This document shows, piece by piece, positions 8,214 to 43,282 of a stretch of 43,282 nt of DNA. This DNA is from Psammoneis japonica. Taxonomy: Eukaryota. The translations under genes were made by a program, and so were the position numbers. The stretch lies in the NCBI GenBank assembly GCA_008632985.1, contig QPGO01000229.1, forward strand, positions 62,001 through 105,282, in the 5' to 3' direction. Under the pieces are notes generated by a model. The model saw only the letters and a program-made list of their open reading frames with translations, did no database searches and was not told the origin of the DNA. Numbering within the stretch: the stretch's first letter is position 1; every line of letters begins with the position of its first letter.

Positions 8214-9143
8214 ATGGAGAGTGCTCAAGAATCAGTGTTGCTTGCGATGCGTCTTGAAGCGGAGGAAAGACAAGCCCAAGCTGATTATGAACTTGCACTC
8301 ATGCTGGCTGGACAGGACGAAACGAGCAAACCATCCCCCCAGACGCGTTCGCAGAGTCACTCTCAAGAACACGAAACAGTTGAAGACTACACCCAAACCG
8401 ATTACGCACTTGCCCTCAAGATGCAGAAACAGGACGAAGAAGAGACAGCGCTAATGCTATCCAGTGCAACTGGACGGGCGTGGAAGCTTGTTCAGAGTGT
8501 TGTAAGTGCAGTCCAAGGCTCAGAACTTGTCTCTCCAGTGGCAATTGACGATATGGTGTACACTGCCGAACGCTTCATTGTCGCTCACGACCACTTCCGT
8601 AAGAATCGCAAGCCTAGTCTCGTCGACATTGGGTACCATTACACTCGACGAGAGAATCTAGAACGCATCCGTACCGATGGACTTCTCACAAAAGCAGAAC
8701 GAGATGCAGAGAACATCAAGTCTCACTACAACGGTTCGAGCTATGGTGACGGCATATATTCCGCCCACAATCCCATGACTTACCAGAACAGCTACGGCGA
8801 GACGGGCCTTCTGGTCGGTCGTTTACCGGGTGTCATGGGCTCAACGGGTTTGGGAAACTGTGACACACGAGATTGTGGCTCTTTCTGGGTGCTCAAGACA
8901 TCACAGCAATGCCTTCCGCTTGTGCGGTTCAATGTTCGCGCCGTTCAGGAAAATCCAGCCCAGTTGTACGAGATCCATTTGATCATTCACGACATTCTCG
9001 ACGAAGCCTTCAACAGCGGTCCTACGCAGCCTTGCGGCTTTCCTGGAATACCTCAGAGAAACACGGCAAGACAAACACCAACACTTGCAGCTCCTTCAGG
9101 GAACACCCAAAACGCCACTCAAGGTAGTTGCATAATTCAGTAA
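8214..9143 (+). CDS. Protein with N-terminal MIU/UIM-like ubiquitin-binding helices, a PARP/ADP-ribosyltransferase-like domain and a C-terminal CaaX
   Basis: ADYELALML and TDYALALKMQ; DIGYHYT...N...I...GL...GSSYGDGIYSA (PARP-type H and Y strands); ends CIIQ-stop. Confidence 0.65.
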   Translation: MESAQESVLLAMRLEAEERQAQADYELALMLAGQDETSKPSPQTRSQSHSQEHETVEDYTQTDYALALKMQKQDEEETALMLSSATGRAWKLVQSVVSAVQGSELVSPVAIDDMVYTAERFIVAHDHFRKNRKPSLVDIGYHYTRRENLERIRTDGLLTKAERDAENIKSHYNGSSYGDGIYSAHNPMTYQNSYGETGLLVGRLPGVMGSTGLGNCDTRDCGSFWVLKTSQQCLPLVRFNVRAVQENPAQLYEIHLIIHDILDEAFNSGPTQPCGFPGIPQRNTARQTPTLAAPSGNTQNATQGSCIIQ

Positions 9144-9199
9144 GAAACATAGAAGTATGTGCTGGTTGCAGTGGGCAGTGATGGGCTGGTGTTTTGTTA

Positions 9200-9604
9200 T
9201 TAAGGGGGGGTCATCCCCGCGTTTATCCTAAAATTACCGTTGCATTTGAATAAGGTTTTTTATAGTGTTTATTTTTGAATACAAGAATTATTCATAGTCA
9301 CACCCGATCGCGCACGAAAACGAGAACCATCAGCACCGCGATCGAAGCACGACGATGATGACAATCATCGATATTTCTCAAAAAACGTAGATTGCCGTCT
9401 ACCAACTTTTCATGTATATACAATCTTTGATACATAACAAGCATAAAATAAATGAGAGTTGGTAGACGGACCACCTCCGTCACAGACTTATGGCTTGTTG
9501 TTTTCACCACGGTGAAGCACGGTGAAATTCAGGAAAAATCATGCAAAACACGAGCTATTCGGCCGAATTCGAGCTAAAAAAAGTAGCAACCGACCACCCT
9601 TAAG
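9200..9604. mobile_element. Possible ~400-bp non-autonomous DNA transposon (MITE) with TTAA flanks
   Basis: Left TTAA-GGGGGGGTC and right GACCACCC-TTAA form a short imperfect inverted repeat; AT-rich non-coding interior. Confidence 0.35.
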
Positions 9605-10799
9605 TGGGCGTACCACAGTTCTCGGCCCGTTCATTTTCTACGTGGCCTGGTACAACCCAAATCTGTGTAGATTCAGTACATTTCGCCCTGTAGAACAGTT
9701 TTTGGGTGTGTTTTCTGGCTCGCGACGCAAAATAACACGCAAAATAACACGGACAATGGCGTTTCGCCGATTTCAAAAATACGGTTGTTTCTGAGGTACT
9801 TTGTAGTGTACTCTCAACGGAATATCACACGTCATAGCATAAGGTGTGTGATGAGCTCGAGAGCACACAGGTTCACATGGGTAGATCATGGTGAAATTTT
9901 GAACTGAAGATTGGTGTTGACACCGCCGATTTTGTTGCATCAACACGCAACTTATGCATCACCATTCATGCTGTGCATTTCGTTGAGTACTCACATGCTC
10001 ACATTCTTTCAACTTACACATGCATTGTCTTTCCTCATTGTTGTTTTGTTCTGTAGGGTCTCCCTTGCCATGGGCCATCCCTGAGAGAGAAATGCTTGCT
10101 TTGAATGTCACTTCTACCTTGCAACGGCCACGGCAGTCTGACGACAAGTCCAAGTCACAGATGCAGCATCCGGATGACTTCATGATAAATGTAGAAGCTT
10201 GGGTCTTTGGTGTCTGAAGATGTTCAAGCTCTCAGCAGCTCAGATTTGTCGTCGAGCAATTTTGATGCGCATTTGACGTGCCTCCAGAAGGTGATGCGCA
10301 GTTTCACTCGACAGAGAAACGAGCCATGGCGATTATGATGGCTTACATTGAGTCTTACAGATACAAGGTAGTTTATAACACAGAAACATGTGACTCATTT
10401 GCCTCATCTGCTAAGCCTGTGCAACACATTTAGATGTTAAAGTCGGGGCAAATTGTGCACAATGCCAAGTCTCCAAAAACAGCACAAGAGTGCAAGCCCA
10501 AAAGAAGAATTAGCTTCACAACTTATCATGGGAGTGTAGAGCTTGTTTTTCTGGGGCATCATGTCTCTGTTGTTTTCATGGAGTGGACATTCACTGGTGT
10601 TGTTGCCGCCAACGTGCGAGTTCGCCTTGACAACATGTTGCACTGTATTCTGAGAGTTTGGAATGAAAAAACAACTTGCATTTACATCATTCCATCACAA
10701 CAGAAATGTGTGAGCTGTCCCTGGCCCTTTTGGAGAAATGGGGCAAGTGAAAGAGGAGCTACAGAAAGATGCGGACGATGCCATTTTGATGGATTGTCG

Positions 10800-13340
10800 T
10801 CAGGTGGTGTGTCGAGAGGAGTCGTGATGGAGTGCCGCTTTGTGTTTTTGTGCTGCGTCCATGCAGGAATGTACGTGCTTGGCTCTCGTGTAGTTTCCAT
10901 GTAAAAAGTGTGCCAGGCGATCTCTGGACCGCCCTCTTAATTGAGGTGTCCATGGGGTTGGCAGTTGTTGTGGTGGGGAAATGGGTGGTGGAGGAGGCGC
11001 GCGTAGAGCGCTGGGAGAGGGAGAGAAAAAGGGTTGGCCGAGGGTGCGGACAGACGGTCGTGAGGAGGAGTTGGTGATGGTGGGATGGCGGAGGAGGAAA
11101 GCTTGACATGCAGAGAGATGGTTGGAGAGAGCAAAGCCAAAATTGAGACTGAGGATTTGGGAAGCCCAGAGCAGGGGTGTTGCTGCATGACAGGAGGAGC
11201 CGAAGTGATCGGGTGAAAGTTGTTTCCAGGCCGCGTTGGATTGGGCGAGGAGGTTGGAAGGAGCCAAAAGGGAGTTGGTGCAGGCGGAGAAGGATGCTTG
11301 CGAGTTGGACAAAGAGGATGGGCTGGACCAGGGCAGTTTGGGAGGGAGGGGCAGGATGGAGGAAGAGGCAGTGGTGGAGGCGCCAAAGAAAAAGACATGG
11401 AAGTGATGTCCAATGCCTCCGAGGTGGTCGAAGGCAAAAGGGAGGAGGAAGAGGCCTGCTTGGTTGATGGCGTCAATGACATCAGAGCCATGAGCAGAGG
11501 ATGTAGAACGGCTGAGGAGCTTGTCCCGAGTGCTGCTGAGGCGAGCCTTGTTGAGCGGGTTTTCAGGGGTGGGCAAACCAGGTGCAGGAGGCGGGGGAGC
11601 GGGCGGTGCGGTGATGTCAATTGCCAGGAATTGGTGGGTGGATGGGGCGTTTGGTGGTGTGGAGCCGGGAGCAAGTTGGACGCCGACGTCGGCGGGGCGT
11701 TTTAGAGGGTGGTTGGGCAGGAGTCTGGCAGGGTCGAGGTGGACTTGTTGGCGAGACCGGCAGAGACCGCACATGGGGCCGAGGGTTTCGATGACAGTGT
11801 GGACAGTGTCACGGATGTGGTTGGACAGAGGGCCTTTGTGCATTTTGGAGCAGGCAAAGGCGTGATTGCCGCACAGGTCGGGGCGGGCGTGGCCGCATGG
11901 GCAGTTGTGTTGGGAGAGGGTGGGTGGGACAATGGGCAGGCGGAGCTTGCGTGGGGGAGGAGGATTGTGAAGAGGTGTGGCGGAAGGCGGTTGGAAGTGG
12001 GGGTGCGGGATGGGGAGTGAAGGCACAGGCTTGTGAGTGGGGACAACAAGGATGGGAGCACCGGTTGGATGGAAGGATCAGCGAGGAGCAGGGGAAGGGT
12101 GTTGTGCGTGTGATGGTGGAGGTGAGGGCGCTGTGAGAGACCGCGTAGGGTGTGGTGTTTGACAGCGTGTGGAAGGGAGGTGAAAGAGGAAGAATCAAGT
12201 TTGAGAAGGGTGGGAGCGCAGTGGCGGAAGATTTGGTAGAGGGAGAGAGCAGAGCGAGGGTTGGACCATGAACCAAGAGCAGCAGAGCAGCTTGAGGGAA
12301 GGTGGAAGATGGCACCACCGGTGAGTGGGATGCCATGTTTGGTGCAGCGGACAGATCGGAGGAGGGAGGTGATTAGAGCGGGGACGGCGACTGCGGAGAT
12401 GTCTCGACATCCGATGCCGCCTGAGGAGACGGGCAGGGTGGCAATGAGTTTGGAGGCAGATGGGAGTGGGTTGGCATGTTGGGTGAGGCAGGTGAGGAAT
12501 CGGAGGGAGTGGCCGATGATTTGGTCGGTGAAGGGGGATGCCCATTGAAAGGGGGGTGGGAAGTCGTCAGAGCGCAGAAGATTGCAGCGTGCATCAGCGG
12601 ACAGCAGGTGGTTGATGGAAGGGATGGAGCACTTGCGGAAGAGGGTGCTTTGTGTTTGTTTGTCAGTGAGGCGGACGGTGAGGTGATGAAGGTCGGCGGC
12701 AAAGGAGGTGGCCTTGTTGTGAAGGAAATCGAGGGTGAAAGCGGGCGAGCCGATGGGTCGACCGAGGAAGCGGGTGCCAGTGGTGATCTCGGGTGTGACA
12801 TGGGGCTGTTGTGGGGATTTAGGAAGGCCAAGGCTTTGGAGAGTGCGGCGGCGTCAGCAGGTGGGAGGCGGTTGATGGGAGAAGAGCCGGCAATGGATGT
12901 GAGAATTTGAGTCTTGGAGGTGTTGAGCTTGATGCCAAATTGGGGGCCGCAGGTGGAGAGTCATTTTGAGGAACCAAGGGAGCTGGGAGAAGGGAAGGAA
13001 GACATGGGTGTCATCAATGTACGAAGAGGCAGCAGATTTGGAACAGGGAGGGAGTTGATGACACATTTTGTCATTGATGGGGTGGAATGCGCGAGCAAAA
13101 ACAAGGCAGGAAAAGGCAGGTTTGAGGGGGCAGCCTTGAGCAAATCCCTCGGGTTGAGAGAAGGAGGGCCATTGTGAGCGGTGGTCACGGCACTGGCAGG
13201 TGTTAGGGTCTTGGCAGAGCAAGTCGAAGAAAGGCACAAGAGGGCGGCACTCATCGGAGTTGTCGAGGGTGTGGTGACAGGCATCACGGGAGCATTCGTT
13301 CTTGATCTCCGTTCTGCAGTGCAGTGCAGCCAGGGCCCTG
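10800..13340 (-). mobile_element. Decayed non-LTR retrotransposon ORF: reverse transcriptase + zinc knuckle + restriction-like endonuclease (CRE/Ambal-like)
   Basis: RT motifs EGFAQGCPL, SYIDD, GIKLNTSKTQIL (12.9-13.3 kb). C-terminal CPCG...DLCGNHAFAC...NHIRD, KRPADVG, LAIDIT, LLPFAFDHLGGIG (10800-12026 ORF). Many frameshifts and strong purine skew on the + strand. Confidence 0.8.
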
Positions 13341-16140
13341 TGGCGTGGCTCCAACAGAGTTTTTTTCAGATGATTGTGTCAAATCTGGGGAGGTTGTGTG
13401 CAAGATTCTTGCACACAACAGACAGCCCCATGTTCCACAGACATCCACAGAGATCAAGTGCCACATGCAAGCACTCCACAATGTTTCAGTGCTGTGGCAA
13501 CATTTGTTTGATCATCCCCTTGAATTGGCACCAAAGATTGTTCAAACCTTTTGGACTTTGTGCCTGCCGGCATTGTGCGGCCAACACAGAAGAAAGAAAA
13601 TGGCACCACAGTGAACATTGTCACAATTGATCTGTCCTTGTGTGGGGTTTTGAACAAATTGAAGATCTGCCCAATGCATTTTGTCCAAGCTGCACAAAAC
13701 TCATGGTGTCATCTGCCTCACTTTGTGCAAGCTTTTCTCTCTCAGATGCAAATGAGATGCAGGTGCCCATTGGAGGATTCTTTGCATTTTGTTGACTGTG
13801 GTTGTTGTTTTCCACACAGAGTGATGTTGCTCCTGAAACACCAGCTAAGAAACACAGGGCAGGAGCACATTTTTTCAACCACAGGTGTCCCTGCCTCTGT
13901 GAGCCCCCATGCTGTCATGCTGGTCAAGCGCTGTCAAAAATCAATGACAAGAAGGCACGGCCAACACCGCGTGACAACAAATGTCGTCATGAGCACAGAT
14001 GCTGTGCCTTTGGGTGTGCATTTGCTCAACACCTCTTTTGCTGCTCTTGCTCCTGTTGTTTGCCCATTTGAGGGTGCTGTCAACTTGTCAAATGATGTGT
14101 TGGTGCACACTCTGATCAAAGCTGATGTGAGCGCATTGAAGAGATCATCATTTTGGTGGCATTCTTCTCAATGTGTTGCAGCCTGGTTGAGCCAAGTGTG
14201 AAATTGTTGAATGAGATGCCATTGGCCTTTTGCTGTGCAGATTGCTGATCAACAGTTTCTTGAAGACTTGCTGTGTGCAAGAGGCAAGAGTTTCTCCACT
14301 GCCTGTTGATGTCTGCTTGTCAAATGACCCACTCTGCAGTGTGCATCACAGTTCGTGGGTGATCTGGGGATGAGTCTGGACAGCTGCTGTTCAAACAATC
14401 TTGTGCAGAATTTGCACTGGAACAGTCAGTCAATCAGTGCAATTGGGGTGTTCGGAACACTGTGTTCAAAAAGCACGTGTGAACATTGGAAAGACTCTAC
14501 ATCTTTTTCATCAGTTGATTGAAGTCAGCACTGACAAATGCCCCAAACACACAGATGGACAGAATTTATTCAAACAGCATTTGGCAGCTGTCCAGACACA
14601 TCTGGGGGACGTCTTTGGAAGTGAGACCAGCAAAAAGGTCTGCATGCCAGTGCGTTTGGGGCACTCAGCTGTGTGGCAAAAAAACAAAAATCACAGTCAT
14701 GGCAGAACTTGCTGCCAACAATGACAGCAAAGGAGACGGCTGCGACGTAAACTCCAGTTCACCACAATGTGTGTAAGACCTGTCATTCATGCCACCGCAC
14801 CAATTGCAAGTGATGACGAGAGTGCCTTGTCTCGCCATGTGAGCAACGTGCTTCAAACAATCCATGCAACGGCAGCATGCTTCCACCACTTTCCGCCAGT
14901 GGCAACATCCCGATTCCGTTGACAAAACTTTGTGGTGTCAAGGTGCTTGTTGACAAATCCATGCTCAACAGCAAGCCAAAGCAAAATGGAAATCATTGGA
15001 CAGATTCAAATCTTCAGGCTGTGATGCTGGGTCTCTCCAAGACAAGCTCATTTCAGTCAACTGGTGGTTTGGTCTTTCCGTTGAAGAGAAGCAGAGGGAA
15101 TTTGAAAGGCTCAAGGGTGTCCATCAGCATCCAACGGCATCAAACCAACATTTTCCCAAGAAGAAGAAGGTTGTTTTGTGCACCGATTCTCAAGATTTGT
15201 TGGGCGAGCATGTTGAGAACAGTGCAAGCGGCCAAAAGCTTTCTGGAAAGCACTGTCTCACAACAGGGATGATGTGATTGAGAAGGTGCAGCATGCAATG
15301 GGAAAACCAGTTCCAAATGCTGCAGCCTGCATGGAGAGGACTGTTGCTGACACCATGGAGTTGGTGTGCAACGTGACGGTTGCCTGCAACATGTCACTTG
15401 TTTTGGAGCATCAGGTTGGAGCTCCCCACAAATCTGGGGTTGCCCCATTGGATGAAGCTCTTCTGCCATGCCCAAAGAGAATTGTCATGGTGCCAAACAG
15501 TGAGAGGCTGCCATTCGATGAAGAAACAATTGGCTGCATGAAAACAGACAAGAACACGGAAAATGATCTTTGATGGCATCAACGAAAGCACCTGATGATC
15601 ATTGCAAGCAATTGCTTGAGCTCCTCATGCTGTTCTCACTCATCACACCCCTGCAGTGCTGCTGTCTAAAGATTCAGCTGTCATTGAAAGGAGCAATGTG
15701 ATGCAAGCCATCATCTGCTCTCTGCAGTGTGTGCCAGTGCCAGTCAAGACATGGCTGTTTCTGCAACAAAAACCATTGGAATTCAACAAGAAGCATCTGA
15801 TGTGTGCAATGCAACACATGCCTTAGATTGTTTCAACCACACTGGATCTTTTCTTAGAGCATGGAATGAATCCATGCGAGCGGGGCACTCCCTCCATGCA
15901 CAAAACTTGTCACTTGGTGTTGCTTTGTGCCTCTCTCGTGATGCACTCAAATCCCCTGCTTCCTGCCTTGAACCTTCATTCAAAGTCACAAGAACTTCTG
16001 GTCAGCAACTGAACAGTGTCTTCCTCAACTGAACCATGTTGTTGACCAACCAGCTCTTGTTGACTCCTTTCAGCTTTGAAGGTGTCTCAACTCCATGATT
16101 GCTTTTGCTTGTTTCTTTTGACTGCGGCTTGGATTGGGCT

Positions 16141-16174
16141 CAACAATGGAGAATTCTCAACAATGGAGAATTCT
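16141..16174. repeat. 17-bp tandem duplication CAACAATGGAGAATTCT x2
   Basis: Read directly. Confidence 0.85.
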
Positions 16175-19100
16175 TCAAACATCTCCACTTTGGTCCCACT
16201 CTTTTTCAACTCCTCCTCAATGTCAGTGGACGTCCTCCTGGCTTGGAACCTCTCAATGTTGTCTGCAACTTTCTGGCCAGTTGCCGAAATCTGATCCATG
16301 CCAAGGTGCCTGTGTCAGCATCGCAGTCTGTTCAGTTGAGCCACCCTCACTGTCCTTGAAGTTGACATTGTCTCCAGAATTCATCAGAGGCATGTGAGTT
16401 CCAAGGTCTGCTCTCTGAGATGTTGCCTCTGCCGTCCTTCTAGAAACATCAAGCAAAAGCGTGTCATGAGACTTGGTCAATCTCATGCATGACAGAAGTT
16501 CACAAAGTTGTGTTGGTTGGCTTCCTTCTGCTTGGAACGAGAGAACATTTGCCATGTGTCCAATGTCCTTCCTTGGATCAACTGAATGAACAATCAAATC
16601 TTGACAGATGGCAGCAACAAACACCTGGGATTGATGTCCAGCATTTTTTAAGTGATGTTTTGAAACAGAACGTGACCCGCACTCACAGCAAACAATCCTC
16701 TTTCCCAAGCATGCACGAATCAACTTTCGCCATGTGATGCAGCAGATCATTTGGAGTCTGCACTTCTGCAGGCACATTTTTGTCAGTCTCCACTGGCATG
16801 TGCGGCAATGGTGTCACTGCTGAATGCAACCACAAATTCGCATCAATGCAATTCTTTTCATCTGTTGACATGGGGGAAAGAACTTGGCATCAGCTGACAA
16901 GGTGCACTGGAGCTTTTCCACTGTAAGTTGCTGATTTGAGCTGTCACCCAGGAGCGACACTTTGAACATTGTGTTTGCCAGCAATCCCTTTCCCACCCAG
17001 TCTTTTTGGTCTTGGAGATCCACATCTTGCAAGTTCGTTGGCCAAACCTGAAATGCATCGAGTGCCTCATGACGAGACATCATTGTGCTGAATTTCAACT
17101 GGCTCCAGCCAACTTCTCTCTCTCTTTCTGTCATTGCACGTGCATCTCACTTCAAGTGGTGGTCACCAAATTTGTTGACTGCTGACGGTGCGGTCACACA
17201 GAGAGCACTGAAGCAGGCGTTTTCCTCTTTCCACCCCCAATTCTGACAGACAGCAAAGGCACAAAATGTGGTCGCAAGGCTTCAGTTCAACACGCAAGGA
17301 CTTGTTGTCGTCAGACACATCCAGCGAACATCATTGACAGCGCACAATTGCCTCCGTGATTGTCAAAGAGACACCGGCAGATTTCCATGGTGTGATGTGG
17401 GATCAAGATTCAAGATGTCAAATCTGGCGCCAGCTGAATGCCCCAAATGCACTTGCACACAGAGTGGGGCCCTGCAGACTTTTTTCATTGGCATCACTTC
17501 CAGAAGGCTCAGACAAATGTCAAGCACATCGTCAACCAGATTGGCTCCACAACAGTTTCATCAAAAGAAGGAATGGATTGGCCATGAGCGAAAGAGAAAA
17601 ACCTCCTGGGGGAGGTGTGTTGAAGACCAAGACAAGAGGACGATGGAGCTTTCATTGACATGGCAGACTTTGAGGAAATTGGACAGGCAGATGGAGTCAA
17701 TGACACGGGAATGAACTGTGTGTGTTCCAGATCCAGGAGATGTCGAAAAGAGGTGACTGTTTTGCTTCGACAATGCATGTTCAAATGCCGTCAGTCCAGA
17801 TCAACCAAAACAATTGGGGTGATTCTGCCCCACAATTTGCCAAAGCAATGCCCCGGATTTCATGAGAAACCACAAACCCAGGGATCCGGGGAATCCAGTG
17901 AATTCGTTGCCTCACGCCAAGGAGCAGTGGATTCTCAAACCAGCATTGGACAGACTCAATCAACGGTGAGTGACGATTTGATTCCGGTCGATGCATTTGG
18001 ACAAGCGACCAAACACCGCCACAGGACAGTGCAGCCACCAAAGGAACTGACAAAGCTCATCCACTTCCAAAAGCGAGGGACAACACTCTTGCTTGGAATC
18101 ATCCGGCAGCTTCAATTCTGTCCGGAGTGAATTTGCCAACAAGGCAATTCTGGGTTGCATCAAAAGAGCACGGGAAGGTGGCGATGAAATGACAGCGCGC
18201 TTTCCCGGAATCAGGAATTTGCTTTGCAACATCGTGCACATGACCAGTCAACAAAGTCTGTTTGATCGGAACCCTCGTGTTTTTGTTTTTCCTGCACTTG
18301 ACATTGATGGCATGCATGAGTGGGAAGGCACAGGAGATGTGATGCTGTCATGTTGTGCAAAGATGGCTGGCATCAAAGAAAAATTGGCTTGACTGGAGTT
18401 TGTCAGCCAAAGCCAAAAAAGCAACTTGACAAAATGTGATTGATGCGATGAACACACCGCCTCTTTGGTTTGCAAATTCCTTGAGCATGGCATCCTTCAG
18501 AAGTCTGCAACTGAAGTGAATCAGCATCAAAAAACTTGTGCAGAAAAGCAAGCTCATGCAAGATTTTGGGCAGAAAAAAAGGTTCCATCGCTCCTCGGGC
18601 TTTTTGATGACAGCATTGGACCACTGCTCAAGATCTCCTTTGGAGCACACGGCAGTGACAATCAGCGCCTTCACCCCACGGTCAACCCAATGCTTCTTTC
18701 ATTTGAGCAGGCAACAATGTGATGCGAAAAAGACTCGGCTTCAGAGCGGCAGCTGGCGCTGAACCGCTTGAACTTGATGACCTGTCAGAAGAGGGCAAGC
18801 AAAATTTACGAGCTTGTCTTCAACACCAGGCTCTTGAGGAGAAGGAGGTGTGTCCTCTCCAACCTTTGTGTGCATGCGTGCATTGACAAGCTTGTCTTTG
18901 TGCAATCCTTGCAAAATCTTGGCTCGTTTGCACATCTGTCTTTTTCCTCAGCATGTGTTCTGTCTTCAGAGGCTTGTTGTGCACGTGTTTGGCTTGGCTT
19001 GTGAACTCTTCATGTTTGGCCATGGGTGCCATCTCTGCCAGTGTCACGATTGCGTTTGTTGCAGCACACTGTCCTCAGCCAAAGAGTTGTCAGGATTCTG

Positions 19101-19204
19101 TCCTTCCTTGGATGTGGTGGCTTCTTCATCAGTGGGTCATTTTCCTTGTCATCAGAGCTGTCATTGTCACAACATTTGCTTGTGAACAAATCCATTTCTG
19201 GCTG

Positions 19205-19336
19205 GTGCAAAAAAGCCAAAGCCTTTTTCAATCTTGCCCATTGAGGCCATTGATGTTCAAAGCATTGCCAGTGCAAAAAAGCCAAAGCCTTTTTCAGTCT
19301 TGCCCATTGAGGCCATTGACGTTCAAAGCATTGCCA
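19205..19336. repeat. 66-bp tandem duplication (2 copies, 2 mismatches)
   Basis: GTGCAAAAAAGCCAAAGCC...AAAGCATTGCCA at 19205 and 19271; differences CAATCT/CAGTCT and GATGTT/GACGTT. Confidence 0.9.
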
Positions 19337-20855
19337 AGCATTTGTTGTTGTGCTTCCTTGGCTGGATGTTGCTCTGGAAAGCAGAGAGAACACCCAATTT
19401 CTTGATTGAGCCTGGCAACCTCCTGTCTGCTTTTCAGGTTGCTTCTGTTCACAACTGGGAAAAGATTGGGTCCTTCATGACAAATGGAAGCTTGCCATGG
19501 AACTGCCAGACTTGAGAGTTTGTGAGCACAGGAAGCTTTTGAAGGAGCAAGAGGCTGGGATGAGTCAGCCAGTGTTGCTGCCCCCAGCAAAAGCGCTGTG
19601 TGCAGTGGATCCTTTTAGTGTTGTCAAAAAGAACTGCTGGGCTGATGCATGGCTGTCAAAAAAGTTCAAATCCTGCCTGAGACAAGTGTCAGTGGGGGCA
19701 GCATTGAGTGTCGCAGGGCCCTGTCTTTGTTTAAATTTCAACACAACACCACCTGGTGTCCATTTCTGGACTTGCTGTGTGCTCTTTTCATTTCCTTTGG
19801 TTGTTTGTGCTCAGGAATTGCATCAATTCTTGATGTGGAGCACTTTTGTTTTGGGACTTTTTTGGAAAACCAAGAGCCCCAAACTTTTTGATGGAAGGAA
19901 GCAGCATCAGAAGGCATGGCAAAATTGTTTCTTTTCAATGCAGTGCAAAGTCAAACGATCGTTTTTGTTGTTGCCAACATGTCAACTCTGTGTTGTGACC
20001 AATTGCCACACCACAAGCTGGTGTGCTCTTGCCACCCACAAAGTTGATGGGCTTTTCAATGTTGCACAACAGAATGCCCCCATTGTGCACAACAATGGAG
20101 CATCTCCAAGTCAGGCATGAAGTCCAGTGCATCAGATCCAATCTTCATCAGCAATCCAAAGTTGGTTTTGTGATGTGGCATCAGTGCTGGCTGCGCTGAC
20201 AAAGGCGCTGAGCGCGCCACATTGTGTCATCATTTTCTTTCTCAATTCTTCTCAGCAGTGTGACCAAAAATGTGGAATGTGATGCATCAGCACATGTGTG
20301 GCTGACCTTCAAGTTTGGCTGAACTGTGAGACTTGGTTGTAGAGGATGATGCAGCAAATTGGCATTTTGCCATTGTTTTCACTCTTTCAAACACCCCAAG
20401 CAAACAAAAAAGCAAAAGATGAAAAAATGAGCAGCCCAGCTGCCAGCCAAATCTTTGCAAGCTCCAAAATTTGTGTCTTGTTTGGATTTTAACACTTCAA
20501 CCACCAGGGAGCAAATCTCCACCTTGTGATGTTGATGTGCCATCCATTTGTGTGACAGTGCAATGAACACCACACAAAAATGTTGCGCCATGTGCAGTCT
20601 GCACAAAGTGTGAAATCTCCACCAACTCACCGAGATTTGTGCGGTTGAAGGATGACAGCTCCTCTCCATCATCCACAGACAAAGCATGCAAAAAAAAAAA
20701 TGGCACTAAAAGTTGACGTTGAACTTTCTCAATTGCAAAAATGGGGCTGGCTCCCCAGATTTTTTGGTGAATGTGCACTCCAAAACACAAATTGCTCCAA
20801 TTTTCTGTTGCTCATGTGTCTGGGGGCATTTTGTTCAACACATTTGCAACACAAG

Positions 20856-20887
20856 TGAGCAAATCTCCACCCATGGAGATTTGCTCA
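20856..20887. repeat. Perfect 14-bp inverted repeat with 4-nt loop
   Basis: TGAGCAAATCTCCA-CCCA-TGGAGATTTGCTCA. Confidence 0.9.
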
Positions 20888-22193
20888 AGTCTGGTGGTTG
20901 AAGGGTTAAAATGAGCTGTGTGTTGGGAGTGTTTCTGCCTGATGTTGGTGCCACAGATTTGCTCATGTTTGCAGTTGTGAGCCAGAAGGTTGCTCATGTT
21001 GCTGCAACATGACACCTTCCACACTGTGGCTGTGCATCGCTCACCATGGTGCCTCATGCAATGGTGCAAACAAAAGCAGCTGTTGCAGTTGCATGGCTTG
21101 GTGCACACTCCATGAGGACCCAATCATGGATTTTCTGAGCTGCAGCCTTTCCCAGTGCTGCGTGGACTTCTGGTTTCGTCAAATGGAGAAAAAACAATCT
21201 CTTGGAGACTTGGCTCTTTTTTTCATGTTGCGCAGCCTGGCTTGACCTGGCTGGCTGGTCAGCAACAATCAATCTTGCCTTTCCTCTCTTTGTTGGCTGA
21301 GTCATGGGTGGTGTGGCTGCGCTTGGTGTGTGACTTGGTGATGAGATGCCAGCCAGCACAACAGGCTCTGACTGATTTTGGAAAATGCTCAAGCAATGCT
21401 GAGTTGATTTGGAGGAACTCTTGTGAGCTCCATTGCTGCTGATGGTGTTTGCTTGCTTCAACAAGGGGTTTCAGCCCAGCAACCACAAGCCAGGCATCAC
21501 CTCCTGAAAGATCCAGTGACACAAATCTGATGGATGACAAACACCTTTCTTTCTGCACTCTTGCTGCATGCAAACAGAGCTGCCCCCCCCCTCCCCCCTG
21601 TGCTCACATGTGGAGAGACTCTCTCTCTCAATGGCTGAAACACTGCCAGGTGGTCACAAGCAGAAAACACTGACTTGGCTCAGTTTGGCTTGAGCCCATG
21701 GCTTGGCAAGCAGCACCACATTTGATGGCACCCGGTGGATGTGGGCCAAAATCCACAACCTTGGATTGCATGGCATGGTGAGCAGTGCAAGCATCAGACT
21801 CAATGAAGCCTTGTGTGCCAGGACCATTTTTGTCATCTTTGTCATCTGAGCCAGCATCTTTTGGCTCTGAAGCAGGAATCTCACCATTGGTGTTTTTGTC
21901 TTCAGGATCTTGAGTGGTGCCTGGCATGGCTGTGTGATCTTTCTTTGACCAAGACTTTGTCAATGCAGCATCTGTGGGTGAGACACTTTTTCATGGTCTG
22001 GGTGGCTTGCACAAATGACCACAGAGAGATCCTTTCACACCTTCAACAGAGGTTGACACCATCCTTTGGAGGATGTCCCTTGTGGCAGCTGCTGGTTGTG
22101 ACATTTTCCATGAGCAGCTTCAACAACAACATGGGGAGCTTGACAAAAAAACTGCAGAGAAGCTTGGGAAGGTTGCTGCATGACAGAGGTGAA

Positions 22194-22217
22194 GCAGCAG
22201 CAGCAGCAGCAGCAGCA
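22194..22217. repeat. (GCA)8 microsatellite
   Basis: Read directly. Confidence 0.9.
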
Positions 22218-22803
22218 ACAACATCCAGAGGAGCAGGGAAGACAGCACCAGCTGTCTCCACTTCTCATGCTTCCACCATGGTCTGAACCGGATGGCATCA
22301 ATGGAAAACAGAGGTGAGAATGCACGTGCAATGTCAGGCCTGGGCGGGGCGAAGCTGAGCTTGCTGACAACAAACCGGAGCCCCGCATGGCCGGCGGTTG
22401 TGCGCCAGCATGCCACTGTGGTTTGAGTGATGAGAGGGGGGTTAGAGAGATGTGGCTTCAAATGGATGTCATCAACAAAGATGAGTGCAACTCATGAGTT
22501 GGAAAAAAAATGCCGCCGTTGACGAGGAAGAGAACCTCGCCCACTCAGTTTGAGAGAAAGCACTGGAAAGTGCAGAAGAAAGATTCCGCCAGACAGCTGG
22601 GTTGTCTTGGTGAGGTGGCTGGGCAGGGCACACACCCATCTCTCGGATGAGGGGGGCCGCACAGGTGTGGACAGGAGTTGAAATGATGCGTTGAATGTGT
22701 GTTGCTCTCTGGCACAATAAAAAAAAGGAAAAAGTGGAGATTTTATGTTGTCATTTCATTGACCACTCAGTGGTTGGTGATTGCAGACTTTTTCGTGTCG
22801 GTC

Positions 22804-22853
22804 CGGCAGTCGGGGGGTCGGGCAGTCGGGGGTCGGGCAGTCGGGCAGTCGGG
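22804..22853. repeat. G-rich tandem repeat (GGGCAGTC interspersed with GGGGGTC) near the right edge of the mutated block
   Basis: CGGCAGTCGGGGGGTCGGGCAGTCGGGGGTCGGGCAGTCGGGCAGTCGGG. Confidence 0.85.
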
Positions 22854-23641
22854 TTGTCCGTCTGAATTTGAAAGTGTGTCCCTCGGATTTTGGAACGGGA
22901 TGGGTTGTTTAGTACAGATGAACTCTTCGGATTCGTAGAATGATCATTGAGGACATGAGAGGTCGTGGGGACATCCTAAAAAATCGATAAATTCCCTACG
23001 ACGGGTACGTGGCACGGTTTTTCAGGAGAGCTCGAAAGTGCTGTAAAATTGGGATTGCCGGCGTGGCATGTTGAAAAATGTATACAGTTATAAACAAAGA
23101 TAATTTATCGTGAATTCTACACGAAACAGTCATATTTGGGAAAACATATCGAACAATAAGTGAGTTTGTGCGATGCGCTATTATGGCGATAAATTGGAAA
23201 AAAAAGAGTGTCCGTGCACCTCGCTACAGCCCCAAAAATGGCATGAGACATCAAATATAACGGTCATCCGCGTCACCGGTGCGGTGGCCACGCCACTCAG
23301 CCGCCACAATGCCGGCCCCGGCGGTAGAGCCCTACGTACGTACAGGCAATACAGCATGCAACGGCACACACCCACACCCACAAAGAAAGACAAGTGGTCA
23401 ATGCTCCCCGCAGGCCTGGTTATTATTTGATGAAATGACAGAGACGACAGAGACGACTCAGACGACTAACTCTAAAGAAACCATGACTGAACTTTTGTCA
23501 ATCGATTCCGAAATTCTCGCTCGCTCTCCATTCCACTCGCTTTCGTTCTCGGATCAGAGACTATCTCTGATCCTCTCACAATATCTAGAACGCTCTTTTG
23601 TGCAAGGTATTGACTTCCTCTAGCATCAATTTTTGAAAGTC

Positions 23642-24756
23642 ATGGTTCGATCATCCTACATTCGCAGCGGTCAAATATCTCGATCATCGGACACCGCGGA
23701 AACACGGTATTCTGTGCGGCGGCTTGCCTTCGTGTTGGCTGCGTTTGCGATTTTCTTTGTATCAAACCCGGCCAATCATGGCGCGATACGGTCGTTGTCT
23801 AAAAACTTCAAATCTGATATTAAGGTTTTCAGCTACTTTTCGAAGCTACCGTCATTCTGCCCATCCGGCACAATGACAAATTACGCTCTTTTTTCGTTGG
23901 AAAAACGCAATATGGAGGGAGTTGACGTGCACATGCTAACTCATTCCTTCCCTCTGTGTCGATACGACTCAAACGGGCTTGATTCGATTTGTACTTCACT
24001 AGGTTAGTGCTGGCAATCTGTTTATGCTATCGCAAACCATTTCATCGCGCTAACGAAGTTTGTTCTTCTTTCATCACTACGCAAATCCAATGCTTAACAG
24101 CCGATAATTTCTGCCACGGCAAATCATTGCTTGACCCAAGTGATCGGCCCTTTACTTTCAGTCGAGTATTATGCGGAGTGCTCATTTGGTTTTGGATCCT
24201 ATCAATGGCAGAGACAACACCATGGGACAAATATTCAGTACGGGGTTTTCGAATTGTTGAACAGAGCAACATAGTGGTGGAGCTCATGACGTCTCTAACA
24301 CCAAAACCCGTCCCCGCCATGGACTTTTTGTTTGTCAACTTCTACCTTTATCCATCGTTGGTTTCCCTCGACAAGATTGTGTCATCATACAAATTTGGCG
24401 GCGACCCATCGTGGAACTTTTACTTTTGGGCTCTGGTGTTTGTCTTTGGGATTGGGGGATTGTCCAACGTGCTTGTCAGAAGAGCCTTTACACGAGAGCG
24501 CAGCTTCAATGGTTTAGGCTCTGTGGTTGGAGCTTGTTTGGGATTTCAACAAGCCATCAAAGGGAGGGACTTCTTGAGACTGTTTGGCACATCACAATCA
24601 CCTTCTACCATGTTTTGGCTACATGTTGCTATTTCCGCCGTCTCGTCATCACCTGGTAGTGTTGTGGCGTTGCTTTTTGGTGGCACAATGGGGTTTGCGC
24701 TAGGAAACCATCTGATCGATCAAAGTAGCCCGTGGAATCCGTTGTTGGGAAAATAA
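23642..24756 (+). CDS. Multi-pass membrane protein, rhomboid-like and probably catalytically inactive; two exons
   Basis: Intron 24003-24100 (GTTAGT...AACAG) joins the frames. TM pattern resembles rhomboid, with NGLGSVVG in place of GxSG and ALLFGG in place of AHLGG. Confidence 0.55.
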
Positions 24757-34399: not shown

Positions 34400-35950
34400 G
34401 CACGAAGAGCCATGGCCGCCATCCAACCAAGCACCAGCGTTTCACCACGACTCACGTAGATTCTCCGAGGATTCTGGCACACACGCAATCCGAGGCGGAA
34501 ATCAGTTCAGCTGATTCAAGTCCAGATGGTTGTTTGCTCTCAATTTTTTGGCTGGCGACTCAAACATCAAGCGCAGGCAAGTGCATTGCTTGTGTTTCTC
34601 TCTTGACCATGAGCTCAACAGACACTGTTTAGAGACAAGTGAACACAGGGTGAGTGTGTTGTTGAAATGACCGTGTTGTTTCTTTTGCTTTTTCCATGCC
34701 ACGCTTCTTCATCTCTGCTCTCCTCGCCACTCTCTTGTTGCTTTCTGACGCGTTCCAGCTCTGCCAGCTGCCAGGTGGGACCTCGCACTGCTGCGCTGTG
34801 ACATCAACAGTTTTTTGGATCACATCGCATGTCGCGCATGCACATTTCTGTGTGTTGCATTCTACGAAATTGTTTCATGCTCCCTGTTTTGCGAAGCCAA
34901 AGGCTTTCCATTTTCAACAGTTGTGAGAATGAAAATGCACTGGGTGTGTTCTTCAATGTCTGTAGAGTGTGCCCGGGCAAACTGTTGTTGATGTGCTCCA
35001 AGTGTGAAGGAGGAGATGCATTCATAAAATTGCCTCTTTTTCTGCTGGTGAGATCATTCACATTTTCATTGCAGTGCAAATTCACTGCGGAGCTCGCACG
35101 TGGAATTCTGCGGGCCCAATGTCACACGGAGTCCCACCTGGGACTGGAACCCGTCTTCTTTCACATTGACAGCATTGAGGTTTTGCACCAGCTGTGTTTG
35201 GGAAGAAGTCAAAACTGTTTTTCAAGACAGGTGGAAGAGAAAGATTGTGTTCAGGCCTGCAAGGGACATGCAAACATGTTCAGAGAAGATGGAAGCCATT
35301 TGGGAAGCTGGCTTTGTTGCTTTCACACCCAGTGCTTCAGACTTGCATCAGGAATGTGCAAGCAAGTTGATGCTGTTTTGGAAGCCTGCTGTCATGGAAT
35401 GCAGCCAAGACTGTTTGTCAAGATTGGTGGAAAAGAAGGGTTGAATTCAGGACCACATGTGATGCATGAATGTGCCCAGGCACAATTGAAGCCGGCTCAA
35501 AAGAAGTTGGTTTTGTTGTTTTGCCAGCAGAAGAGAAATTGACAACTCAGGCTCACATTGGGAATGTGCAAGTTGATGTCATTTTGGAAGCCAACATCAA
35601 CACCAGCAAAGCAAAAAGACAAACCAGCCAATGCACTGCACAGTTTGGAAACATCTGTGTCATCTCTTTGTTTTGCACATGCAAAAACTCACATGTCCAC
35701 ACCGTAGCAGCCATGGTGCGGGAACTGCTTTTGCCATGGATGCATTGTGAAACAGCATGCCACACAGTCCAACTGCTCTGCCTGCACTGGCCTGGCAACT
35801 CAAAAAAATGGAAGATTGTTTGTGGCTCTGCTTGCAGCACAACAAAGGTTGTGGTGTCAATTTCTGGATGAAACTAGATGTCACACAAATGACCATAGGA
35901 ATTCTTTCTCGATCTTTCTTAACAACTCTGGCAATCCACTTTCATGCACA
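34400..35950. mobile_element. ~1.5-kb decayed TpA/CpG-depleted insert, probable transposon remnant of unknown family
   Basis: Same compositional signature as 13.3-22.3 kb; lies between OTU1 and the Deg protease; no recognisable domain or ends. Confidence 0.5.
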
Positions 35951-39282: not shown

Positions 39283-39498
39283 ATGGAGACTAGGAATAAT
39301 ACAAACAAATTGACTAAACGTGAGAAAAGAGAACTGCGCGCAAGAGCAGCAGTTTGGGCTGTTGAGCACCAGAAACAAGTGCAACAACGCAAACGACACG
39401 AACAGAATTTGGCGAGCCGAGTGCATCATTTGGAGTCAAAGGTAGAGTCCCTGGAGAGGACCATTGAACAATTGCATTCCCTTTTTCATGATGAGTGA
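39283..39498 (+). CDS. Small coiled-coil ORF upstream of and overlapping the gag start
   Basis: 71 aa, ATG start, amphipathic LASRVHHLESKVESLERTIEQL. The stop lies within ATGATGAGTGA at the gag start. Confidence 0.45.
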   Translation: METRNNTNKLTKREKRELRARAAVWAVEHQKQVQQRKRHEQNLASRVHHLESKVESLERTIEQLHSLFHDE

Positions 39499-40330
39499 AT
39501 CGTTGAAGGAGCCTTGCATTGGCTGTGAAGCCAAATTTGAGCATTCTGACTTGGAGGAAGTGAAATTGACCCAATCGCATGATGACGGTAGCACTCGTAC
39601 AAAAAAGTGTCCGCGTTTTGATGGCACTCATGGCATTGAAGCATTGTTATTCGTTGAGGATCGTTTTCGTAAAATTGCTGTGAAATTGGAGCACACCACT
39701 GGCGAGGAATTGTTCGAAAATTTCGAGGAAGTGCTTGCGGACACTGCAGAGGACAAGTGGGCGAACTTGACCAATGCAATTGACGATGCCGATAAAACTG
39801 TCGAGCGTTTTGATCAGGAAATCAATCGTTTTTACTTGTCTCATTGTGACAATGAAGCGCGTGATGCAATGATTGAATGTTTGCTGGCTTTGAAAAAACC
39901 ATTCAAATCTGAAGTGCAGGCGCGTGCAGATCGCATGGAAACCTTGATTCGGCACTCCAACAAACTTCCAGGCAATGCTCCTCAAGTCAACGAAGCTCAG
40001 AAGAAAAAGATGACATTCGATGGCTTTCCTCGTCCGTGGCGTGAGATGCATGCTCGAGCAGGACGAGCGATGGCGAACGATGCTCTCGCTGAGATCATTG
40101 GTCACACGAACAACGAGAAATCTTTTGCTGACAAGAGCAGCAACAAAAAGCAGGACAAGAAGAGGAAAAGCAACAGTGCTTCGTCTCAAGCTTCAAGATG
40201 CTCTCGTGGCAACAGTGGTAGAACGGATCTAGAATCTAGATGCCCGGTGCATGCAAATCATGACCACAAGTGGAAGGATTGCATTTTGAATCCAGAAAGC
40301 CAAAACCTGTGCCAACCCCTAAAACTGTGA
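39488..40330 (+). pseudogene. gag: Gypsy gag (hypermutated)
   Basis: FDGTHGIEALL...LFENFEEVL...W, basic region, CPVHANHDHKWKDC zinc knuckle. Confidence 0.85.
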
Positions 40331-43282
40331 CTCCCAAACCATTGAATGTGGTGCCAACGACGTTGATGGCGGCGCGCACCATTCAAAATCAAGAGAGCAA
40401 GCGAGTGTCGCGAGTGCTGTTGGATTCAGGAGGTGCCAACACTCTCATTCATTCTCGAGTTTTGCCGAAGGGAGCGAATCCAACCATGAACGATGAAGGA
40501 CGGTTGAGCTTTCAGACGGCAGCCGGACGACATGAATCCTCCCGATGCGTTGTTATGAAGGACTTGACATTGCCAGAATTTGACAAGTCAAAACAAGTCG
40601 ACAGTGTTGCGGCTCAAGTTTTTGATGCCCCATGCAAGTGTGATTTAATTTTGGGACAAGACTTTTTGTCGAAAGCCGGAATCGTGCTTGATTTTCGATT
40701 TGGAACAATGAAGTGGTTGGAAACGTCGATCCCAATGAAGCAATCCAATCATTGGAACTCAGTTCAGAATTGGTTGGATGCACTGGAAGACGACGGAGAG
40801 GATGAAGACGATGAGGGAGCCTTCGGACAATCTTTTATGATGGACGCCAAATGCGAGAAAGCGTCATCCGCGAAAGTGGCGCAAGCTCAAACTCACTTGA
40901 CTCAAGAGCAACGTGATGAGCTACAAGCAGTGCTTGAAAAGCATGAAACCCTCTTTGATGGAACGCTTGGCAAAATGTCCACATGAGACTGTTCACTTGG
41001 AAGTTGATCCCAACACTGTTCCCTTCCATTCTAAGGCTTGCGAAGTGTCCAAGAGGGATGAAGCCGTTTTTAAGAAAGAACTACAACATCTGTGTAACAT
41101 TGGCGCACTGGAACCAGTGGGACCAACTGAATGGGCAGCCGGAACTTTTGCAACTCCCAAAAAGGATGGACGAGTTCGATGGGCATCCGATTTTCGAGAG
41201 TTGAACAAGGCACTCAAACGAAAGGTCTGTCCTCTGCCGATTGTTCAAGACGTCATTCACCGACGCTCGGGATGCAAGCACTTGACCAAGTTGGACCTCA
41301 CTGTGTTTTATTGTCACATCGAGCTTGACGAAGAATCCAAGGATTTGTGTGCCATTGTTGCTCCGTTTGGAAAATTTCGACATTGTCGATTGGCCATGGG
41401 TTTGAAAACCTCTCCGATATTGCTCAAGCCATCATTGAAAAAGTGGCAAAAGGAGTCAATGTTGAAACTTACATTGATGACATTGCTCAATTTGATGATT
41501 CGTTTGATGCTCACATGCGTCGACTCGATGAGCTGTCATCCAGACTAGAAGAGAACAATCAAAAATTAACCCACTCAAGTGCGAATGGTGTGTCCAAGAG
41601 ACGGATTTTTTAGGCCATTGGCTCATGCCTGCAGGAGTCCGACCGTGGAAGAAGAAAGTGGAAGCGGTGCTGCAAATGCAACCACCAAAAACTGTGACGC
41701 AACTACGATCGTTTGTTGGTGCGGTGACTCATTGCCGCAACATGTGGCCTCGTCGTTCACACGTGCTCGCTCCACTCACGAAGTTAACAGGCAAGAGCAA
41801 GTTGGAATGGACCCCTGAATGTCAACGAGCCTTTGAAGATGTGAAAACCTAATGCTGGACGACACCCTTTGGGTCTACCCGAATCACAACAAGCCATTCC
41901 ACATTCATGCTGACTCTTCGGACTGTCAGATGGGAGCCGCAATTGTGCAAGACGGGAAACCAGTGGCTTGCTGGTCCCGAAAACTCAGTGCAGCACAACA
42001 GAACTACTCTACGATTGAAAAAGAATTGTTGGCGGTGGTGATGTGTTTCAAAGAATTTTGAAGCATGTTGTTTGGAGCTGACTGTCACTGTTTTTACGGA
42101 TCATAAAAATCTCACCTTTCGTGTGCTCAATTCTCAACGAGTTCTTAGGTGGCGACTCTTCTTGGAAGATTTTGCCCCAACTTTTGAATGCGTTGATGGC
42201 AAAGACAATCTCTTGGCGGATTGTTTTTCAAGATTGCCACGCACGGACCCTCCTGCGGAAGGGAAGTGTGCTCCTGACAAGGGCAAACTGATTGATTTTA
42301 AAACCATCGACCCTGCCATGCTGCCGCATGAAGAAGAGCTGGACGACCAAAACAGTGTGTCTCATTTTTCCCATCGTCGTGAAGAACCATCTCCATTTTA
42401 CTCTTCCGTCGTGGACGACCCCGAATTGTGTGAATCATTTTTGAACTGTCCTTCTCTCGAGGAAATGCAAAACCCTACAACCATGCAACGAATTCAAGAA
42501 TGCCAATTCATCGACGTGGAGCTGAACAACATGCGACAACAATGTCCAGAACGCTTCATGGTGGAACATGTGAATCAGCGTCCTGTAATTTGTCATCGTG
42601 CTCGACCGAATGATCCTCCGACTGCATGGAAAATTTGTGTTCCAACGGCGTTGCTGCATGATGTCATGCAATGGCATCACAGAATTTTGGGACATGCAGG
42701 AGTGCACCGAATGCATTCCACTGTTGGCGCACATTTCTGTCATCCTGCCCTTCGTCAATCTTGTGAAAGATTTCATTGTGCCAATTGTCAACGTTTGAAA
42801 ACTTTGGGCCCTGGATGTGGGGACCTGCCTGAACGGGAAGCGCCTTCATTGCCATGGACAGAAGTTGCGGTTGACCTCATCGGTCCCTGGAAAATTGAAA
42901 TTCAAAACCATGAAATCGAGTTCAACGCTTTGACTTGCATTGATGCCGTTTGAATGTGACTGAACTCATTCGCATCGACAACAAAACCTCATCTCACATT
43001 GCTCAACAATTTGAAAATTGTTGGTTGTCTCGTCATCCTCGTCCAAACCGGTGCATCCATGACAATGGTGGAGAATTCATTGGAGAGGACTTTCAATTGT
43101 CATTGCAATGAGCAGGAGTGGAAGACGCTCCAACTACGTCGCGCAACCCACAAGCCAATGCGGCATGCGAGCGCATGCATCAAACTGTTGGAAATGTCTT
43201 ACGCACTTTGCTTCATGTTTGTCCTCCACAGAATGTTGAGCAGGCTAATCAACCAGTGGACAATGCATTGGCAACCGCCATG
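40270..43282 (+). pseudogene. pol: Gypsy pol (PR-RT-RH-IN) with frameshifts, stops and systematic Tyr->Cys/His changes
   Basis: [68 protein letters not shown]...C..C; VAVDLIGPW; IHDNGGEF; NPQANAACERMH. Confidence 0.95.

Follow-up and report, generated by a model that had tools for sequence, protein, structure and literature searches.

What has removed almost every TpA dinucleotide from a block of DNA lying between normal genes? The question is raised by a 43,282-nt stretch of Psammoneis japonica contig QPGO01000229.1 (hereafter the window), in which about 12 kb, made up of a fragment of a long interspersed nuclear element (LINE, a retrotransposon without long terminal repeats, LTRs) and some 9 kb of unrelated sequence that we call the core, have been left nearly free of TpA. 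To our knowledge, a cellular process that turns A:T into G:C at TpA specifically, and in selected regions of a genome, had not been known before a preprint of 2026. We consider it probable that this island records targeted adenine deamination at TpA, of the kind described in that preprint for Bigelowiella natans, together with a separate decay of methylated CpG. Below we give the extent, direction, sequence context and targets of the loss, and weigh other explanations where the evidence touches them.

Dinucleotide observed/expected ratios (o/e) were profiled in 1-kb sliding windows across the window. Only 22 TA were found in 13201-22900 (o/e 0.03; 22 of 9699 dinucleotides, a TpA frequency of 0.0023), where CG stands at 0.30 and CA and TG are raised to 1.78 and 1.72 at a G+C content near 48%, which is like that of the flanks. 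In the flanks TA o/e is 0.55 (1-9800; CG 1.08) and 0.61 (22950-34400; CG 1.01). Every 1-kb window of 12,501-22,500 lies at TA o/e 0.00-0.06 and those of 11,001-13,000 at 0.08-0.13, as against 0.31-0.69 in the left flank and 0.44-0.84 over the 11 kb to the right of the island. Seven TA remain in 11005-13200 (o/e 0.08), and 29 in total between about 10,940 and 22,900. We know of no genome with TA o/e near 0.03. The flanking genes keep 0.5-0.7, and in the window the loss appears to be restricted to non-genic and mobile DNA.

A preliminary description, made from the letters alone, had reported an almost TA-free block from 9850 to 22920, with no TA between 20909 and 22442, plentiful TA outside and sharp edges, and had set beforehand a comparison with the flanking genes as its refuting test. 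The block and the return of TA on both sides are borne out by the above figures, and the TA-free interval is exact, its bounding TAs lying at 20907 and 22443. This gap of 1,536 bp is the second longest; the longest runs from 16,924 to 18,807 (1,883 bp), and if TA occurred at the 0.040 per base of the flanks, gaps of 1,536 and 1,883 bp would have probabilities of 6e-28 and 5e-34, respectively. The edges stood in part. Maximum-likelihood change points for TA were placed at 10940 and 22900; the right edge is indeed sharp, the last sparse TA being at 22744 and dense TA resuming from 22910, but the left one lies about 1.1 kb further right than had been described, and 9850-10940 is an intermediate zone outside the saturated domain, in which depletion is partial (28 TA in 9850-11004, o/e 0.34). 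Since tblastn matches of the LINE relatives cover 11,001-13,687 on the minus strand, the left change point falls at the LINE's 3' end. The observation that the block holds two unlike sequence types also holds good, for it comprises a minus-strand LINE, whose plus strand is 45% G, and about 9 kb of unrelated sequence, and the TA-poor state runs on across the junction between them. Beyond the domain first described we noticed two further TA-poor blocks, a small island at 34460-35900 and a Ty3/gypsy-type LTR retrotransposon from 39445 to the end of the window.

The direction of change is given by what stands in place of the lost dinucleotides. Measured against the dinucleotide ratios of the flanks, 13301-22900 is short of 368 TA and 414 CG and has gained 362 CA and 380 TG, all other dinucleotides being within 129 of expectation in either direction. 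The losses of TA and CG are thus balanced by the gains of CA and TG, which implies two transition processes, TpA to TpG or CpA and CpG to TpG or CpA. Other copies of the sequence were available from one public DNA run (X1, assembled as Logan contigs), which covers the stretch and is perhaps the very sample behind the window; contigs were placed at a likeness of at least 80%, and single-copy depth is 55-60. They differ from the window at 1087 places, 40 of which were seen in detail, and 33 of these fall in 9850-22900. At five of the 33 the other copies carry TA where the window has TG or CA (at 12250 in all 16 contigs), and at 11 they carry CG; the window itself retains TA against TG or CA at two sites and CG at one, the remaining 14 being other changes. 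Transitions make up 876 of the 1068 changes over all listed places. The X1 contigs read CG at 14325, 14898, 16221, 16244 and 16489, at each of which the window reads TG or CA. Taken together, the mass balance, the other copies, and the protein comparisons and gypsy family control described below establish that TpA and, as a separate matter, CpG were converted directionally into TpG or CpA, and they rule out that the composition was inherited.

The same contigs bear on whether the pattern could be an artefact of sequencing or assembly, for example systematic miscalls at modified bases. They do differ from the window about twice as often in the core (22 differences over 3,675 letters) as in the flanks (12 over 5,550), and five of the six core differences seen in detail have CG in the contig and TG or CA in the window, none being at TA. 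However, differences at about 0.6% of positions are too few to account for the loss of 95% of the TA, the contigs of an independent assembler reproduce the TA-free sequence (one of 1482 letters, for instance, with nine differing), and the flanking genes on the same molecule are normal; moreover, the replacement of Tyr by Cys and His and the context rule reported below are biological in kind. We therefore give an artefact hardly any credence. That the core differences seen fall mostly at CG and in no case at TA fits an ongoing decay of CpG in DNA where the TA targets are exhausted.

The two losses are separable. Change points for CG were placed at 13320 and 22320, so that the CpG-depleted sub-domain is nested within the TA-depleted one, and both retroelements have lost TA with little CpG loss. 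From these differing boundaries and from the LINE and gypsy elements it follows that two processes have been at work, and the earlier picture of one mutator for the whole block has to be given up, the gypsy element having lost TA without loss of CpG. TA loss runs ahead of CpG loss and is independent of it. The CpG deficit is matched by a gain of TpG and CpA, as would be expected of methylated-CpG decay. A single cause has nevertheless to be considered in the form of error-prone repair in methylated heterochromatin, whereby T:G mismatches left by deamination of 5-methylcytosine would recruit a patch repair of the polymerase-eta type acting at WA (W being A or T). The hotspot of polymerase eta is WA, with A>G frequent, and the two losses do coincide over 13.3-22.3 kb and in the island at 34460-35900. 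On the other hand, AA, the other WA dinucleotide, is spared (o/e 1.29, against 1.12-1.20), the lost TA are nearly all regained as TG and CA, which leaves little room for the transversions that such a polymerase would make, and neither the boundaries nor the retroelements, which lost TA with little or no CpG loss, agree with a coupling of the two. We regard this explanation as quite improbable.

Furthermore, the bases on either side of TA govern its survival. Writing R for purine and Y for pyrimidine, the 29 TA left in 11005-22900 divide into one R-TA-Y, 12 mixed and 16 Y-TA-R, whereas those of the flank divide into 301, 554 and 168 (chi-square p 1.3e-7); relative to flank density, survival is 0.007, 0.045 and 0.198. 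The same order was observed in the island at 34460-35900 (0, 0.155 and 0.204) and in the gypsy element (0.043, 0.279 and 0.536). In the intermediate zone R-TA-Y is again the most depleted class (0.284), the last two being swapped (mixed 0.772, Y-TA-R 0.636). A model of independent hits on both adenines, with the two extreme classes as its input, predicts a survival of 0.037 for the mixed class in the main island, where 0.045 was observed, and of 0.15 in the gypsy element, where 0.28 was observed. The preferred target on a single strand is 5'-TAY-3' or, which is equivalent on symmetric DNA, 5'-RTA-3'. The natural substrate loop of TadA is U33-A34-C35, which offers a lead and not a test. A single R-TA-Y in the island, against 301 in 24.7 kb of flank, upholds the proposal that the mutator had run close to saturation.

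The two retroelements allow the loss to be followed at the level of protein. In translation the LINE fragment has a reverse transcriptase with a YIDD motif at about 13010-13025 and, downstream of it, a C-terminal Cys/His knuckle (C..C..H..C); the C-terminal part also has an endonuclease-like region, possibly with the PD..D/E motif of the restriction-like endonuclease of R2/NeSL/CRE-like elements. The match to Pfam RVT_1 is weak (E 0.018), and a word-indexed protein search with the 383-aa open reading frame (ORF) gave no match at E<=1e-3 among proteins of 210-671 residues; with a read-through query HMMER gave 283 matches at E<=1e-3, of which 27 reach E<=1e-30 and the best 2.9e-50. A three-base periodicity of purines and pyrimidines is present. 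Summed contig depth climbs from 821 to 4470 between the 5' and the 3' end of the element, as expected for 5' truncation. In the LINE frame Tyr amounts to 0.4%, against 2.4% in homologues, while Cys, at 4.8%, and His, at 7.0%, lie above the 1.6% and 5.0%, respectively, of the homologues. The gypsy element carries Pfam protease, reverse transcriptase, RNase H and integrase zinc domains, and in its ORF at 42042-42953 Tyr stands at 0.3% where 39 homologues have 3.7%, and Cys at 5.9% where they have 2.5%. At the ten columns where at least 40% of these homologues have Tyr, the ORF reads Cys at three, His at three, Phe at three and Leu at one, and Tyr at none. The near absence of Tyr noted in the preliminary description is thus real, and like the scarcity of stops other than TGA it arises because TA is lacking.

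If the DNA had arrived already poor in TA, or if TA were selected against (as a target site of nucleases or transposons, or in stop codons), such a composition would be intrinsic or selected, and the lack of a recognisable homologue of the core in Pfam and in the protein atlas leaves some room for a foreign origin. Yet four unrelated segments are hit, two of them belonging to retroelement families whose relatives have normal TA or normal Tyr; at sites that have been mutated in the window, TA is still present in other copies of the same genome; and the core has no coding signal on which selection could act. We therefore hold this explanation to be very improbable. The family was checked on 80 metagenomic loci related to the gypsy element: their TA o/e is 0.44-1.01 (median 0.71), none coming near the 0.15 of the window copy, and TA loss is therefore not a trait of the family. 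Named relatives of the gypsy ORF are the diatoms Cylindrotheca and Ditylum among the 120 matches listed, and two of these 120 (P0332 and P0341, both JGI records) are, at a length of at least 200 aa, themselves Tyr-poor (Tyr <=0.8%). So are eight of 150 listed LINE representatives (P0143, P0145, P0152, P0154, P0205, P0241, P0261 and P0262), mostly with Cys and His raised. At Tyr columns defined from ordinary relatives, Cys or His occupies 11 of the 12 aligned positions in P0332 and P0341 and 17 of 27 in the eight LINE proteins, as against about 7-8% in the reference rows. The damage is thus present in other public sequences too, some of which may be from this species.

Whether the change took place in resident DNA or in an intermediate is reflected in its strand balance. 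The core is symmetric, with CA and TG gains of 362 and 380, and TG minus CA per 1-kb window between 14 and 22 kb ranges from -0.25 to +0.16, with a standard deviation of 0.16 in the flanks; this symmetry speaks for a process that worked on resident DNA, on both of its strands. A different origin would be A-to-I editing of RNA or cDNA before integration, in which case the apparent domain would be a nest of fragments inserted in both orientations. Retroelements do account for two of the four TA-poor blocks, both have TG in excess of CA on the sense strand (0.31-0.42 in gypsy and 0.23-0.45 in the LINE, per 1-kb window), the gypsy deficit of 178 TA relative to the family baseline is met by 130 additional NTG and only nine NCA, and copy-specific changes would arise in the same way. 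But the core, every 1-kb window of which lies within the flank spread, has no reverse transcriptase or other curated Pfam match in the ORFs scanned and no coding periodicity and is mostly single-copy; in counts the LINE has gained CA and TG almost equally (+41 and +33); and the gypsy Tyr columns became Cys and His equally often, three times each. The gypsy family itself has TG above CA (mean 0.075, standard deviation 0.125), so that the bias of the window copy stands about 1.9 standard deviations from the family mean, and four of the 80 relatives reach 0.31 or more; we have not accepted this bias as proof of RNA editing. On balance, editing before integration seems unlikely as the source of the whole pattern. 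The earlier contention that the mutator did not act on the replication intermediate of one element is thus supported as far as the core is concerned, the core being symmetric and unlike sequences being crossed, and is weakened by the sense-strand bias of the two retroelements.

The saturated core is mostly single- or low-copy. Summed contig depth is 59-275 over 13,337-20,673, rises to 1,511 in 20,674-21,340, and falls back to 59-65 in 21,341-22,674; it reaches 11,670 in 9,335-10,001 and 3,108-11,483 in 22,675-24,008. Two very high-copy repeats, at 9335-9850 and 22910-23421, adjoin the island at about 200-fold summed depth and have normal TA and CpG. The notion of a repeat domain, put forward in the preliminary description, is contradicted on both counts. 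As to the nature of the core, Pfam scanning of 92 ORFs of at least 70 aa, 80 of which overlap 13000-23200, gave none that reached a curated cut-off; no three-base periodicity of purines and pyrimidines was noticed in it, unlike in the LINE and the flanking genes; Rfam and tRNA scans gave no RNA family and no tRNA, and a tandem-repeat scan gave no clue to its identity either; and no tblastn match was obtained with all the proteins fetched. A signature that crosses unlike sequences, in a core that is symmetric, non-coding and mostly single-copy, fits action in place on DNA better than an attack on the replication intermediate of a single element.

We therefore return to targeted deamination of resident DNA, against which several observations have to be set. 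The sense-strand excess of TG over CA in both retroelements makes it possible that an RNA, cDNA or non-template-strand component contributed to their loss of TA. Direction as read from other copies rests on 40 of 1087 differences, and run X1, being perhaps the same sample, is not independent. The codon-path spectrum of the LINE was uninformative, 25 of 48 differing columns needing more than one change and the homologues being about 35% identical. The finding of no TA-poor locus among the 80 gypsy relatives means that the process is not general among the relatives of this element. For the two longest ORFs of the core (19410-20117 and 13524-14198) the protein atlas gave no usable match. Finally, since the adjoining high-copy repeats keep normal TA, targeting is not simply by copy number: the sequences hit are the LINE and gypsy elements, together with the core and the small island of unrecognised origin, and the two repeats were spared.

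The closest known system is that of B. natans, a chlorarachniophyte. Its mutation-accumulation lines showed a mutation rate about 1,000-fold above that of the remaining genome in two integrated viral regions, where 230 of 231 mutations were A>G/T>C, all at TpA, and the genome holds 124 TpA-poor, CpA+TpG-rich clusters, with reverse transcriptase and DDE domains enriched among TpA-poor coding sequences (mean TpA frequency 0.0018), for which the authors propose an ADAT2/TadA-like DNA adenine deaminase directed at foreign DNA (main text of Mettrop et al., bioRxiv 10.64898/2026.01.13.699255). Going by that text, the window shares with B. natans the loss of TpA with gain of CpA and TpG on both strands, the setting of islands several kb long next to normal genes, the presence of reverse-transcriptase sequences among the targets and a comparable TpA frequency (0.0023 in the core). 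By the compositional criteria of the preprint, the windows at 13001-22500 (TA 0.00-0.06, TG+CA 1.61-1.93) and 34501-36000 would be counted as depleted; those of the LINE and gypsy elements qualify for TA, with TG+CA at just 1.36-1.47. Unlike B. natans, the host here is a diatom-type stramenopile, and the signature is a fossil one, whereas de novo mutations were measured there. It is also near saturation over 12 kb, where the B. natans region derived from a nucleocytoplasmic large DNA virus (NCLDV) still has TpA o/e 0.45 according to the same text, and it bears a superimposed CpG decay and a preference for R-TA-Y over Y-TA-R. The main text of the preprint (10.64898/2026.01.13.699255) has no mention of CpG, diatom, context or trinucleotide; its supplements might hold an analysis of flanking bases. 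Our literature search found no report of such TpA depletion in diatoms.

Comparison with other mutators is equally instructive. Repeat-induced point mutation (RIP), as known from Neurospora and other fungi, resembles the present case in being a defence-like transition hypermutation of non-genic and mobile DNA, with sharp edges and destruction of ORFs. RIP converts CpA to TpA and so raises TpA, whereas here TpA is erased (o/e 0.03, with CpA at 1.78), which is the reverse direction; RIP also requires duplicated sequence, and the core is mostly single-copy in a window without internal repeats. ADAR and APOBEC3 of animals likewise inactivate retroelements by clustered transitions of the deaminase type. 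ADARs are metazoan and also accept A at -1, unlike the present process, in which AA is not depleted; APOBEC yields G>A/C>T and not A>G; and both leave a one-strand signature, unlike the symmetric core, partial sense bias being seen only in the two retroelements. According to the preprint's main text, the preference for U/T 5' of the edited A is like that of ADAR and ADAT substrates (10.64898/2026.01.13.699255). Decay of methylated CpG in transposable elements is matched here by the low CpG, by the gain of TpG and CpA and by CG kept in other copies or haplotype contigs, but it accounts for only about half of the TG and CA excess and for none of the TA loss.

The course of events that we propose is that two transition processes, separate from each other, would have altered transposon-derived and non-coding DNA where it lay. 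The first and faster would convert the A of either strand at TpA to G, giving TpG or CpA, with R-TA-Y as its best and Y-TA-R as its worst target, and would have run nearly to exhaustion. The second and slower would convert CpG to TpG or CpA, the outcome to be expected when 5-methylcytosine is deaminated in silenced DNA. The agent of the first is presumably a DNA adenine deaminase, directed perhaps by chromatin or by RNA guides, and its role may be that of genome defence. Our observations suggest that a TpA-erasing process is wider than one lineage. Tentatively, and with less assurance than for the window itself, we would extend this to an active, targeted DNA adenine-deamination defence in diatoms, or in this lineage of them, that would clear TpA, R-TA-Y by preference, out of DNA that is silenced or has newly arrived, inside a bounded domain of chromatin, at a faster rate than CpG decay and independently of it, and that would be one and the same system as that of the rhizarian B. 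natans.

If that is true, a genome defence by base editing is either ancestral to the supergroup of stramenopiles, alveolates and Rhizaria (SAR) or recurrent in it, and could be dissected in tractable diatoms. What the window adds is the diatom lineage, the saturation, the flanking-base rule and a separable layer of CpG decay. It also offers a sequence motif to be matched against candidate deaminases, sharp-edged islands for overlay on chromatin maps, and partly mutated repeat families in which the process is caught midway. Such islands matter for annotation as well: they hide transposons from homology searches (the LINE was barely seen by Pfam and the core went unrecognised), they yield long spurious ORFs because TAA and TAG vanish, and they can be mistaken for horizontally acquired DNA.

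Table 1. Features of the 43,282-nt window (o/e, observed/expected ratio of the dinucleotide named).
Feature	Position	Strand	Remarks
PAM68-like protein			Flanking ORF; Pfam
Mitochondrial carrier			Flanking ORF; Pfam
Intermediate zone, high-copy repeat	9850..10939	.	TA o/e 0.34, CG 0.58, CA 1.73, TG 1.48
5'-truncated non-LTR (LINE) retrotransposon fragment	10940..13690	-	TA o/e 0.08, CG 0.74
CpG-depleted sub-domain	13320..22320	.	CG o/e 0.09-0.51 (1-kb windows); nested within TA-depleted domain
Island core, single- or low-copy, no detectable coding signal	13691..22900	.	TA o/e 0.03
High-copy repeat across right island edge	22754..23421	.	Contig loose ends at 22754 and 23421; summed depth 3108-11483
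OTU1-like protease			Flanking ORF, beside 34460-35900 island; Pfam
Second, small TA-poor island	34460..35900	.	TA o/e 0.07, CG 0.36, CA 1.87, TG 1.68
Deg-type protease			Flanking ORF, on the other side of 34460-35900 island; Pfam
Ty3/gypsy-type LTR retrotransposon, cut by window end	39445..43282	+	TA o/e 0.15, CG 0.87; Pfam

The features of the window are collected in Table 1. Among the 120 matches listed for the mitochondrial carrier, Odontella, Thalassiosira, Phaeodactylum, Cyclotella and other diatoms, at 43-51% identity, make up the named ones, with a plant match at 28% as the sole exception; the best match, at 69%, is unnamed. Together with the gypsy relatives, these matches make the host a diatom or something closely related, and not Bigelowiella. 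The small island, of 1.4 kb, lies between the OTU1-like gene and the Deg-type protease gene and gave no match in a Pfam scan; it indicates that very small intergenic blocks can be marked by the process. The intermediate zone is a high-copy repeat of unassigned class, with a summed contig depth of 2678-4470 over the base of 55-60. Other copies of it carry TA at 10184, 10233 and 10305, where the window has TG or CA, and the window retains TA at 10186 and 10193, where other copies have CA or TG.

The composition of the LINE was considered separately, and the G-richness of its plus strand was rejected as being mainly a product of the mutator. C makes up 45% of its sense strand, and the encoded protein has much Pro, Ser, Thr, Leu and His, a composition that is shared by its homologues, which are poor in Lys, Glu and Gly (2.7, 2.3 and 4.1%, respectively, in the 25 best). 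The purine skew of the plus strand thus seems to be largely a family trait, the whole family being, to judge from these proteins, pyrimidine-rich on the coding strand. We also observed that homology to the LINE runs to about 13,687, yet richness in G, high copy depth and near-normal CpG come to an end close to 13,300-13,340; possible readings are a chimeric 5' end of this copy and over-extended alignments there.

The two high-copy stretches at the edges of the island have no similarity to each other in either orientation. At the right edge, inside the high-copy repeat, a GTCGGGCA microsatellite of about 6.8 copies occupies 22800-22853. BLAST self-comparison and a seed search in purine/pyrimidine space found no pairs of LTRs or terminal inverted repeats within the window, and the only repeat they detected is a 66-bp tandem duplication at 19205-19336, within the core. 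Its two copies differ at two sites, both of them transitions, one being ATG against ACG at a CpG site and the other AAT against AGT.

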